The position numbers and the translations under genes were made by a program. Shown here piece by piece: positions 1 through 889 of a DNA stretch of 889 nucleotides. Source of the stretch: Escherichia coli (GTDB lineage: Bacteria > Pseudomonadota > Gammaproteobacteria > Enterobacterales > Enterobacteriaceae); the NCBI RefSeq assembly GCF_003334385.1, contig NZ_QOWN01000143.1; one strand, written 5' to 3'. The notes beneath the pieces were generated by a model. It did not search any database and was not told where the DNA came from. It saw only the letters and a program-made list of their open reading frames with translations. Positions within the stretch are counted from its first letter, which is position 1. The number at the start of each line of letters is the position of its first letter.

Positions 1-602
1 GACGACCACAGCGTTCTGTTCTGCAGTTGGTCCGTGGTGCTGTCCGCCGTCTCCCTGACCATCCGGATGTTAAAGGGGCGGGGAGGCAGATTATCCAGAA
101 TCACCGAGGCCAGGAACTGTGAGGTGGTCTTGCCGTTAATGGTGACATCCTTTTCTGTCACCCAGTTACCGTTACGCTGTAACTGAATCAGCAGACGGAC
201 AGAGGACGGATTACGGTCACCCTTTGACGTGGTCTCCACCAGTGACTGCACCCCGAAGGTAACCCGCAGACGGTCAATGTTCGCTGACGTGATGGTGCGC
301 GTCACCGGCTTTGCCTTCGTCACCTCCACGCCCAGTGCGGTTTCCGCCCCGGAGGACTCAAAGCCTTCCGGCGGTGTCTGCTCCTGCTCCCCGGCACGCC
401 AGACGGCGGTCACACCGTGTATCACGGGATTACCGTCCGTGTCCGTCAGCGGGGTTTTGTTCACCAGAATACTCTGCAGTCCCTTCACCGGGCCTTCTAT
501 CGGTCCCTCACCAATCGCATCAATCACACTCATCATCTGCGTGGATTTGAGATTATCCTTCGCCTCGCGCGGTGTGTGCGCCCTGCCGCCGCCTTTGCCC
601 AT
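1..602 (-). CDS. J: Host specificity protein J / tail tip central fibre protein, N-terminal 200 codons; start codon at 602..600, ORF continues beyond the left edge of the window
   Basis: Reverse complement of 1-602 is an uninterrupted reading frame: ATG at 602..600, then 200 sense codons with no stop (MGKGGGRAHTPREAKDNLKSTQMMSVIDAIGEGPIEGPVKGLQSILVNKTPLTDTDGNPVIHGVTAVWRAGEQEQTPPEGFESSGAETALGVEVTKAKPVTRTITSANIDRLRVTFGVQSLVETTSKGDRNPSSVRLLIQLQRNGNWVTEKDVTINGKTTSQFLASVILDNLPPRPFNIRMVRETADSTTDQLQNRTLWSS...). From memory this aligns colinearly with the N-terminus of phage lambda J (MGKGSSKGHTPREAKDNLKSTQLLSVIDAISEGPIEGPVDGL...TPPEGFESSG...TRTITSANIDRLRFTFGVQALVETTSKGDRNP...NLPPRPFNIRM...DSTTDQLQN.TLWSS) at high but not complete identity. 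A strong Shine-Dalgarno sits 7 nt upstream. No database search was run. Confidence 0.9.
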   Translation of the reverse strand, partial: MGKGGGRAHTPREAKDNLKSTQMMSVIDAIGEGPIEGPVKGLQSILVNKTPLTDTDGNPVIHGVTAVWRAGEQEQTPPEGFESSGAETALGVEVTKAKPVTRTITSANIDRLRVTFGVQSLVETTSKGDRNPSSVRLLIQLQRNGNWVTEKDVTINGKTTSQFLASVILDNLPPRPFNIRMVRETADSTTDQLQNRTLWS

Positions 603-635: not shown

Positions 636-668
636 ACAAAAACAACAGGCACCCCGGAGGATGCCTGT
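636..668 (-). terminator. Rho-independent terminator-like hairpin on the tail-operon strand, about 35 nt upstream of the J start
   Basis: Minus-strand RNA: ACAGGCA-U-CC-[UCCG]-GG-G-UGCCUGU followed by UGUUUUUGUG. The 7 bp GC-rich stem (668..662 paired with 651..645) extends to about 10 bp via one U.G wobble and two C-G pairs around a 4-nt loop. On the plus strand the same hairpin is followed by ATCATGACTG (no U tract), so it is orientation-specific. Pairing was checked by hand only, not with a folding program. Confidence 0.55.
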
Positions 669-675
669 ATCATGA

Positions 676-711
676 CTGAATAAAAATTCTGAATATCTTC
701 ACATTTTCACA
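676..711. repeat. Short tandem direct repeats: CTGAATA x2 (676-682, 689-695) and TTCACA x2 (698-703, 706-711)
   Basis: Read directly from the sequence: gaCTGAATAaaaattCTGAATAtcTTCACAttTTCACAaa. The repeat periods are 13 and 8 bp. Function unknown; they overlap the candidate promoter and a CRP-like site. Confidence 0.5.
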
Positions 712-733
712 AACTGACTGTGGCGCTGATAAT
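706..733 (+). promoter_or_regulatory. Candidate sigma70 promoter firing antisense to the tail operon
   Basis: TTCACA (706-711; 5/6 to TTGACA), a 16 bp spacer, then GATAAT (728-733; 5/6 to TATAAT). Predicted transcription start near 740. It sits in the AT-rich spacer and a plus-strand terminator lies about 60-100 nt downstream. Hexamer matching only, no experimental support. Confidence 0.3.
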
Positions 734-739
734 TTCGCT

Positions 740-837
740 GCGTTAATTTTTTTTGTCGTGACATAAGAATAATTCCTTACACTTAATCTTCGTAACTCTC
801 CCGCAGTTCCTGTCCGCGATCACTGCGGGATTTTTTT
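740..837 (+). ncRNA. Candidate small antisense RNA of about 95-100 nt (hypothetical), from the predicted start near 740 to the plus-strand terminator
   Basis: No plus-strand ORF exists here: there is no ATG between 673 and 845, and GTG/TTG starts hit stops within 1-8 codons. The interval is bounded by a promoter-like element upstream and a strong intrinsic terminator downstream. I do not recognise it as a known sRNA family. Confidence 0.2.
799..837 (+). terminator. Rho-independent terminator on the plus strand (antisense to the tail genes)
   Basis: Perfect inverted repeat TCCCGCAGT (799-807) / ACTGCGGGA (822-830) gives a 9 bp stem with 6 G-C pairs around a 14-nt loop, followed immediately by TTTTTTT (831-837) and then ATTCTTTTT. 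On the minus strand the hairpin is preceded by an A-run and followed by GAGTTACGAAG, so it would not terminate tail-operon transcription. The loop is longer than typical. Confidence 0.6.
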
Positions 838-844
838 ATTCTTT

Positions 845-889
845 TTACCCCTGCCGCCCGATAACCACGACCTTTCCGCCCCCGCCTTC
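845..889 (-). CDS. C-terminal end (14 codons plus stop) of a probable tail assembly protein I homologue; gene enters from beyond the right edge
   Basis: Reverse complement of 845-889 translates as EGGGGKVVVIGRQG followed by TAA (stop at 847..845). From memory lambda I ends ...DEGDGGQVVVIGR, so the Gly-run plus VVVIGR motif matches, and I lies directly upstream of J in lambda. The fragment is very short, and the other two minus frames are also open across this edge, so the call rests on motif and synteny. Confidence 0.5.
   Translation of the reverse strand, partial: EGGGGKVVVIGRQG

Follow-up and report, generated by a model that had tools for sequence, protein, structure and literature searches.

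The promoter of pasB, the prophage-borne gene of a small regulatory RNA (sRNA) in Escherichia coli, is preceded by a conserved dyad (TCTGA-N6-TCACA), and the way in which this element has been preserved among related prophages makes it probable that it serves as a functional regulator-binding site. While the sRNA itself was already known, the presence at its promoter of a conserved dyad with a defined architecture is new. The dyad consists of the half-sites TCTGA (positions 688-692) and TCACA (699-703) on the plus strand, which are separated by a 6-bp spacer (693-698) and followed by a TTT flank (704-706).

The window, i.e., the entire 889-nt stretch of DNA analyzed here, shares 80-95% identity with about 150 lambdoid and Stx-converting phages, as well as with many E. 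coli prophages, over their tail-tip region; by homology, it represents the tail region of a Stx-phage-like, lambdoid prophage. Its left part (3..602, minus strand) holds the 5' part of the tail-tip/host-specificity gene J, of which the first 200 codons are present from the ATG start codon (602..600) to the point where the gene runs off the left end. The J translation starts MGKGGGRAHTPREAKDNLKST, and a protein J annotation is present in the homologous phage PhiR5_1 and in E. coli records. At the other side of the window (845..889, minus strand), the tail assembly gene I is represented by its final 14 codons; it has its stop codon at 847..845 and runs off the right end. Its translation ends VVVIGRQG, and the homologues are annotated likewise. 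The spacer between I and J is 242 nt long and contains a self-contained plus-strand transcription unit that is oriented opposite to the tail genes. On the strand of the tail genes (minus), a terminator-like hairpin followed by TGTTTTTGTG is found at 645..668, just upstream of the J start codon and inside the late operon, and the minus-strand region 640-712 folds with a z-score of -4.7. The hairpin is restricted to one kind of upstream context (hereafter hairpin-type); unrelated sequence takes its place in the CFT073-type and in other contexts.

By homology, the plus-strand unit in the I-J spacer is the published Hfq-dependent sRNA gene pasB, because both the PasB Northern probe and the PasB coordinates in strain E2348/69 map onto homologous sequence. 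Window positions 813-832, when reverse-complemented, give the probe (table S6 of PMC8550237), and the E2348/69 coordinates (1466343..1466261; 83 nt) fall on homologous sequence whose counterpart in the window is located at about 753-837. The homology to the validated E2348/69 transcript includes the probe region, the terminator and the location in a lambdoid I-J spacer. In the window, the predicted primary pasB transcript (740..837, plus strand; about 98 nt) starts at an invariant G740 and ends with an intrinsic terminator (799..837, plus strand) in which a stem formed by 799-807 and 822-830 is followed by seven T (831-837). An Rfam search of the window yielded no family for pasB; the only match below E = 0.1, a spurious one to MicX, scored 21 bits where the gathering threshold is 75, and it is due to the terminator.

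PasB was described as an Hfq-dependent prophage sRNA of the EPEC strain E2348/69 (Pearl Mizrahi et al., 2021; PMC8550237). Comparing the wild type with a delta-hfq strain, that study obtained log2 fold changes of -6.8 and -2.4 for it, and it took part in 37 RIL-seq interactions. PasB belongs to the EPEC accessory sRNAs with the most interactions; Hfq dependence and mRNA pairing were reported for the E2348/69 copy only (PMC8550237). This copy and the one in the window share the I-J locus, the orientation opposite to the tail genes and the terminator, and their promoter regions (680-745) are nearly identical, with three differences. In contrast, the sRNA bodies (about 755-812) have strongly diverged, and the window represents a different and more common sequence variant. 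A near-identical promoter in front of a diverged body could stem from mosaic recombination or from a promoter that is more tightly constrained than the RNA. A match to the pasB-type spacer was detected in 1748 of the 5426 complete E. coli genomes, that is, in about a third of them. Neither of the two papers on PasB (PMC8550237; Zhu, Shabalina & Storz 2026 preprint, 10.64898/2026.05.13.724894) treats its promoter, its transcriptional control or a regulator, and the words "promoter" and "CRP" are absent from the preprint.

The published 5' end of PasB, which was taken from RNA-seq coverage and an approximate Northern size, lies just past the first U run of the predicted transcript, 13-15 nt downstream of G740. 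Since no -10 region is conserved for it, this published end probably reflects processing or a loss of coverage. The predicted transcript start (735-752; TCGCTGCGTTAATTTTTT) resembles the 3' arm of the terminator with its U tract (820-837; TCACTGCGGGATTTTTTT), and the position of the first U run just before the published 5' end of the 83-nt PasB suggests either 5' processing or an internal duplication. In the single-stranded part of PasB, the stretch 764-779 (TAAGAATAATTCCTTA) is similar to the consensus of the RcsAB box, probably by coincidence; a role as the seed region of the sRNA is more likely.

With its position between two tail genes, pasB is reminiscent of the "moron" genes of prophages (e.g., lom and bor of lambda, or sodC in Gifsy-type and E. 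coli prophages), which possess their own promoter and terminator inside the late operon. Like these, pasB is a self-contained unit that sits among the tail genes and is expressed in the lysogenic state, and its slot is occupied by sodC in some relatives. Unlike the morons, it carries a non-coding sRNA as its cargo and is transcribed against the late operon. In the prophages concerned, sodC (encoding a Cu,Zn-superoxide dismutase, on the same strand as pasB) replaces the J-proximal part of the spacer together with the whole pasB promoter, including the dyad. Loci of this type were found in L091 (NZ_CP148426.1; 589-1301) and in the IMG/VR sequences L221, L225, L228, L249, L262, L271 and L306; the PasB body and terminator follow sodC at a distance of about 85 nt, and no promoter is recognisable for them, so that PasB may there be silent or a read-through product from the sodC 3' end.

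For the comparative analysis of the promoter, relatives were gathered with anchors positioned outside of the dyad (the sRNA body and ATCTT...CTGCGGGATTTTTT), so that the sample is unbiased toward the site. With GenBank phages and RefSeq genomes added, this collection comprised 187 segments with 79 unique 200-nt sequences, corresponding to 80 alignment rows when the window is included. Seventy of the 80 rows are promoter-bearing. The remaining 10 (seven sodC insertions and three chance matches) lack the entire promoter, and consequently no promoter-bearing sequence with a mutated half-site was excluded along with them.

The transcription of pasB is served by a sigma-70 promoter on the plus strand, antisense to the tail genes, with a -10 hexamer GATAAT (728..733; TATAAT in most relatives) and a -35 hexamer TTCACA (706..711) that are separated by 16 nt; the start at G740 is predicted from the -10 region. 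Among the 70 unique promoter-bearing variants, the -10 region is kept as N-A-T-A/C-A-T with invariant positions 729, 730, 732 and 733, and it begins 24 nt after the TCACA of the dyad in all variants except one (69/70). The -35 region is the most variable part of the promoter: TTCACA is present in 40 variants, TTCTGT in 11, TCCGGC in seven, and TTTACA, TCCGCA, TCTGCA and TTTGCA in three each. Further upstream, at about -60 to -55, lies a conserved A-tract (ATAAAA, 680..685, plus strand), which may be contacted by alpha-CTD in the manner of a UP element or may flank the dyad. Across at least five upstream contexts, none of the 70 variants departs from it at positions 680 and 682-685, and position 681 is retained in 67/70. 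When judged by eye against the consensus (-59 to -38), the distal subsite of a UP element (683-693) is matched at 7/11 positions, while the match to the proximal subsite is poor. Within the promoter spacer, at about -20 to -17, G720, T721 and G723 are invariant in 70/70 variants and their neighbours vary. Alternative promoters, with TTCACA at 698-703 as the -35 region or with a reading on the minus strand, had no conserved -10 region.

The dyad lies just upstream of the -35 region within the 22-mer AATTCTGAATATCTTCACATTT (685..706, plus strand), whose core spans 688-703 and is centred at 695.5. The original prediction had singled out this 22-mer for its perfect right half-site TCACA with the TTT flank and a left half TCTGA in place of TGTGA, a description that proved correct, and had placed its centre about 45 bp upstream of the transcription start; we calculate -44.5 relative to G740. 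A core match of 9/10 to TGTGA-N6-TCACA is expected 0.03 times per window, and it was present in 6 of 200 shuffles.

Both half-sites are intact in each of the 70 unique promoter-bearing variants. Polymorphism affects five of the six spacer positions (693, 694, 695, 697 and 698) and not a single one of the 10 in the half-sites (Fisher p = 0.0014); the forms taken by the spacer are ATATCT, ATTTCT, AACTCT, AATTCT, GTTTAT and ATTTCC. The dyad is kept across at least five unrelated upstream contexts, with junctions at about 678-688, and at least seven versions of the -35 region, counts of lineages that are soft in that all relatives are Escherichia prophages linked by recombination and their sequences are not independent. 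It is likewise retained in lineages that show about 50% divergence in the -35 region, in the spacer between the promoter hexamers and at the 5' end of the sRNA. In one lineage (u19/u22/u76), both flanks and four of the six spacer positions differ and both half-sites are retained. The invariant block as a whole comprises A680, A682-685, T688-A692, T696 and T699-T706, with the dyad as the most conserved part of the I-J spacer. A scan of genome contigs with ATAATTTCNCTGNGTTA gave one true match, in E. albertii, where the CFT073-type site is intact; the remaining contig matches were AT-rich chance matches and a repeat in one MAG. A literature search for the site sequence retrieved no paper that contains it. 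The distribution of substitutions between half-sites and spacer is that of a protein-binding site and points to a dimeric protein, without saying which one. Taken together, the fixed half-sites, the free spacer, the fixed distance to the -10 region, the A-tract and the drifting -35 region suggest an activator-type promoter at which a dimeric DNA-binding protein acts.

A different organization of the same stretch had been envisaged in the original prediction, which read two tandemly iterated words as a regulator-binding array. These words exist: CTGAATA is found at 676-682 and 689-695 (13 nt from start to start), and TTCACA at 698-703 and 706-711 (8 nt). In dinucleotide-preserving shuffles of the spacer or of the region 670-760, however, a 7-mer was repeated within 20 nt in 10-17% of the cases, a 6-mer within 12 nt in 16-29%, and both in 5-10%; the tandem repeats are not statistically unusual and are incidental. 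The first CTGAATA copy (plus strand) sits at a mosaic junction and is not conserved, as positions 676, 677 and 679 are polymorphic and relatives show CGGAATA, GGCATA or GTGAATA in its place; the second TTCACA copy is the poorly conserved -35 hexamer. The conserved copy of each pair is exactly one arm of the dyad, and the repeats vary among close relatives that have the dyad intact. With units that are neither conserved as repeats nor above chance, cooperative binding of a regulator to iterated CTGAATA and TTCACA words is already contradicted by the comparative data, and we assign it hardly any probability.

CRP recognizes 22-bp sites of two-fold symmetry with the core TGTGA-N6-TCACA, and it activates transcription from positions around -41.5 (class II) or around -61.5, -71.5 and -92.5 (class I). 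The extent to which the dyad qualifies as such a site depends on the matrix used. With an approximate classical 22-mer matrix, built from 20 footprinted sites, the 22-mer scored 14.75 bits, which is above 17 of the 20 leave-one-out training scores and was reached by 0.2-0.3% of shuffles; no other match of at least 14 bits was found with this matrix in 803 kb of lambdoid DNA. With a 16-mer matrix derived from 107 MEME-predicted sites under the CRP ChIP-seq peaks of ETEC H10407 (PMC4287617), the dyad scored 4.9 bits. This value corresponds to the 5th percentile of the bound sites and is at background level: 24-79% of shuffles attained it, and lambdoid DNA contains 1.2 such matches per kb. The predicted resemblance to a CRP site thus stands out from the background on the classical matrix and fails to do so on the ChIP-seq matrix. 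The loss in score is caused mainly by the C at CRP position 5 of the left half-site. This base is invariant in 70/70 variants and is the rarest at this position among the ChIP half-sites (1/214); a G instead would give 11.9 bits. That a disfavoured base is kept although G raises the score indicates that selection has not been maximising the affinity for CRP. Because the ChIP-matrix score of the dyad falls between those of two classical functional sites, malK (4.7) and galP1 (6.2), weak binding of CRP is nevertheless biochemically plausible.

The location of the dyad is also unusual for CRP. The original prediction had it near, but not exactly at, a class II position, and this assessment holds: the centre at -44.5, calculated from the predicted start, is 3 bp off -41.5 and does not coincide with a position competent for activation, and the spacing is fixed in 69/70 variants. 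In H10407, CRP sites cluster at about -40.5 and -92.5 (PMC4287617). The pasB site is absent from the 111 listed CRP ChIP-seq peaks of this strain (PMC4287617), an absence that would count as evidence only if this strain carries pasB. No usable report of CRP acting from about -43.5 or -44.5 emerged from a literature search. Like class II CRP promoters such as galP1 and CRP-activated sRNA promoters such as cyaR, the pasB promoter has a dyad that adjoins or overlaps a weak -35 region and in which a 6-bp spacer accompanies a half-site of the TGTGA type, an A/T-rich stretch just upstream of it, a ChIP-matrix score close to that of galP1, and, as at a CRP site, constrained half-sites around a free spacer. 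It differs from them in the position of the centre, in the left half TCTGA with its invariant C where CRP prefers G, and in that many variants possess a good -35 region together with a consensus -10 region. Two of these features, the invariant C and the centring at -44.5, speak against a canonical site for CRP.

In EPEC, PasB levels are higher in overnight static LB than in exponential DMEM cultures, and the CRP-repressed sRNA Spf is about fivefold lower in static overnight LB than in DMEM (PMC8550237). As support for CRP this contrast is circumstantial; control by sigma-S, FNR or growth phase would account for it just as well, given that SdsR and FnrS, like PasB, are raised in static LB (PMC8550237). 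Elsewhere in PhiR5_1 (L309, PV340545.1), a perfect CRP core (TGTGACTAACTTCACA; 48385-48400) lies upstream of a "putative adhesin/invasin" gene (48657-49730), and a strong CRP match (TGTGACTTGAATCGCA; 7776-7791) is located between kil and hipD; both are better CRP candidates than the pasB site in this type of phage.

Other regulator motifs were judged by eye against consensus sequences. The FNR motif (TTGAT-N4-ATCAA) is matched at 6/10 positions, and the DeoR operator at 9/16. For Cra, whose motif is TGAA-N4-TTCA with CG in the middle, the central positions are free to vary and TGAG is present in one lineage; for LexA (CTG-N10-CAG), the sequence reads CTG-N10-CAT, with an invariant T replacing the essential G. 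The sequence at 677-690 (TGAATAAAAATTCT) matches 13/14 positions of the ARG-box core of ArgR; it is confined to the window-type context, has no partner box and was judged to be a chance match. A marbox would require the non-conserved positions 706-714. The NarL 7-2-7 arrangement and sigma-54 fit worse than CRP or fail the comparative data. TCTGA read as a sigma-E -10 region has no conserved -35 region, and the sigma-28 -10 sequence (GCTGATAA) is found only in this window. The original prediction had also raised a phage repressor or Cro-like operator. In the complete 50-kb genome of PhiR5_1, which is 95.5% identical, the dyad is present once, and no match with one mismatch or fewer occurs in the cI-cro region; a CI/Cro-type operator is unlikely, because a related complete phage has a single copy of the dyad and nothing similar in its immunity region.

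Among the readings that treat the dyad as an operator, we tentatively favour an upstream operator of the pasB promoter bound by CRP, a reading that we regard as possible and by no means secure. That the operator instead belongs to a dimeric regulator other than CRP, activating from about -44.5, is only slightly less probable in our estimate. Candidates would be a host factor or an orphan protein of the CRP/FNR family that reads TCTGA/TGTGA half-sites 11 bp apart. Such a protein would account for a C that is invariant just where CRP disfavours it most, for an equally invariant spacing that is not of class II, and for the background-level score on the ChIP-derived CRP matrix, and the substitution pattern, which indicates a dimeric protein without its identity, is compatible with it. 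Yet apart from CRP no E. coli factor is known to have a site of the TGTGA-N6-TCACA type; FNR, Cra, ArgR, LexA, DeoR, NarL and MarA/SoxS all fit worse by eye; and the lack of a second copy of the dyad in the related phage genome gives no hint of a phage regulon. In its more specific form, in which an orphan CRP/FNR-family or other host regulator works on a -35-poor promoter with the invariant C and the fixed spacing as the marks of its specificity, we hold this explanation to be unlikely.

Readings without an operator fare less well. The block might be preserved as an UP-like A-tract for alpha-CTD, the TT of the -35 region and intrinsic curvature, with no dedicated regulator and with a coincidental likeness to CRP sites. 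The invariance of the A-tract (680-685) and of TTT (704-706) would be in keeping with this, as would the low ChIP-matrix score and the near-consensus -10 region of most variants, many of which also have a 5/6 -35 region and might not need an activator. A UP element, however, leaves fixed TCTGA and TCACA around six freely varying base pairs unexplained, its consensus is only partially matched, and the block is retained in lineages whose -35 hexamers match at just 2-3/6 positions; we regard this reading as improbable. Phage mosaicism might also have produced the block as a short shared linker that joins recombined modules and has no regulatory role. The block is indeed the intersection of segments shared to the left in some lineages and to the right in others (in Stx1_132418 the identity is 100% over 672-708 and is lost beyond, and the CFT073-type homology starts at 680), and in lineages of the hairpin type the hairpin on its left is conserved almost as well as the block. 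But a shared block must pre-exist for recombination to use it, the u19/u22/u76 lineage has kept its half-sites amid changes on both flanks and in the spacer, and the non-random placement of substitutions would not be expected under neutral hitch-hiking, which makes a mere linker very unlikely. Least credible among these readings, and rejected by us, is an element acting as RNA, a small hairpin that the minus-strand mRNA of the late tail operon would form between I and J. In the window, the minus-strand sequence 680-710 folds at -5.4 kcal/mol (z = -2.3), and the variable positions would sit in or next to the loop; across 16 variants of this 31-mer, however, the stability is not maintained (-1.3 to -5.4 kcal/mol, with z near 0 in many), pairs of the outer stem are broken without compensatory change, and the fold of the plus strand is negligible.

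Returning to the operator bound by CRP, we envisage the dyad (about -52 to -37) as the upstream operator of the sigma-70 promoter of pasB, next to a -35 region that has not been preserved. A dimeric DNA-binding protein would occupy the dyad and help RNA polymerase to start at G740, with the alpha-CTD of the polymerase possibly contacting the A-tract at about -60 to -55. Trimming would subsequently shorten the resulting Hfq-dependent transcript from about 98 nt to about 83 nt. The best candidate for the protein would be cAMP-CRP, acting on a weak and atypically placed site, and CRP at the dyad would couple the output of PasB to the carbon and energy status of the cell.

Regulator sites in front of promoters are commonplace and do not constitute a new system, and the result is incremental either way. 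PasB is nevertheless a widespread sRNA whose control is undescribed in publications, and a conserved operator with defined half-sites and spacer provides a handle on the signal that switches on a prophage sRNA in the lysogen. If the regulator is not CRP, the site could be used as bait for a new regulator, and PasB would be the first recognised member of its regulon. If it is CRP, PasB would join the catabolite-controlled sRNAs CyaR, McaS and Spot 42, and prophage riboregulation would be tied to the carbon status of the host.
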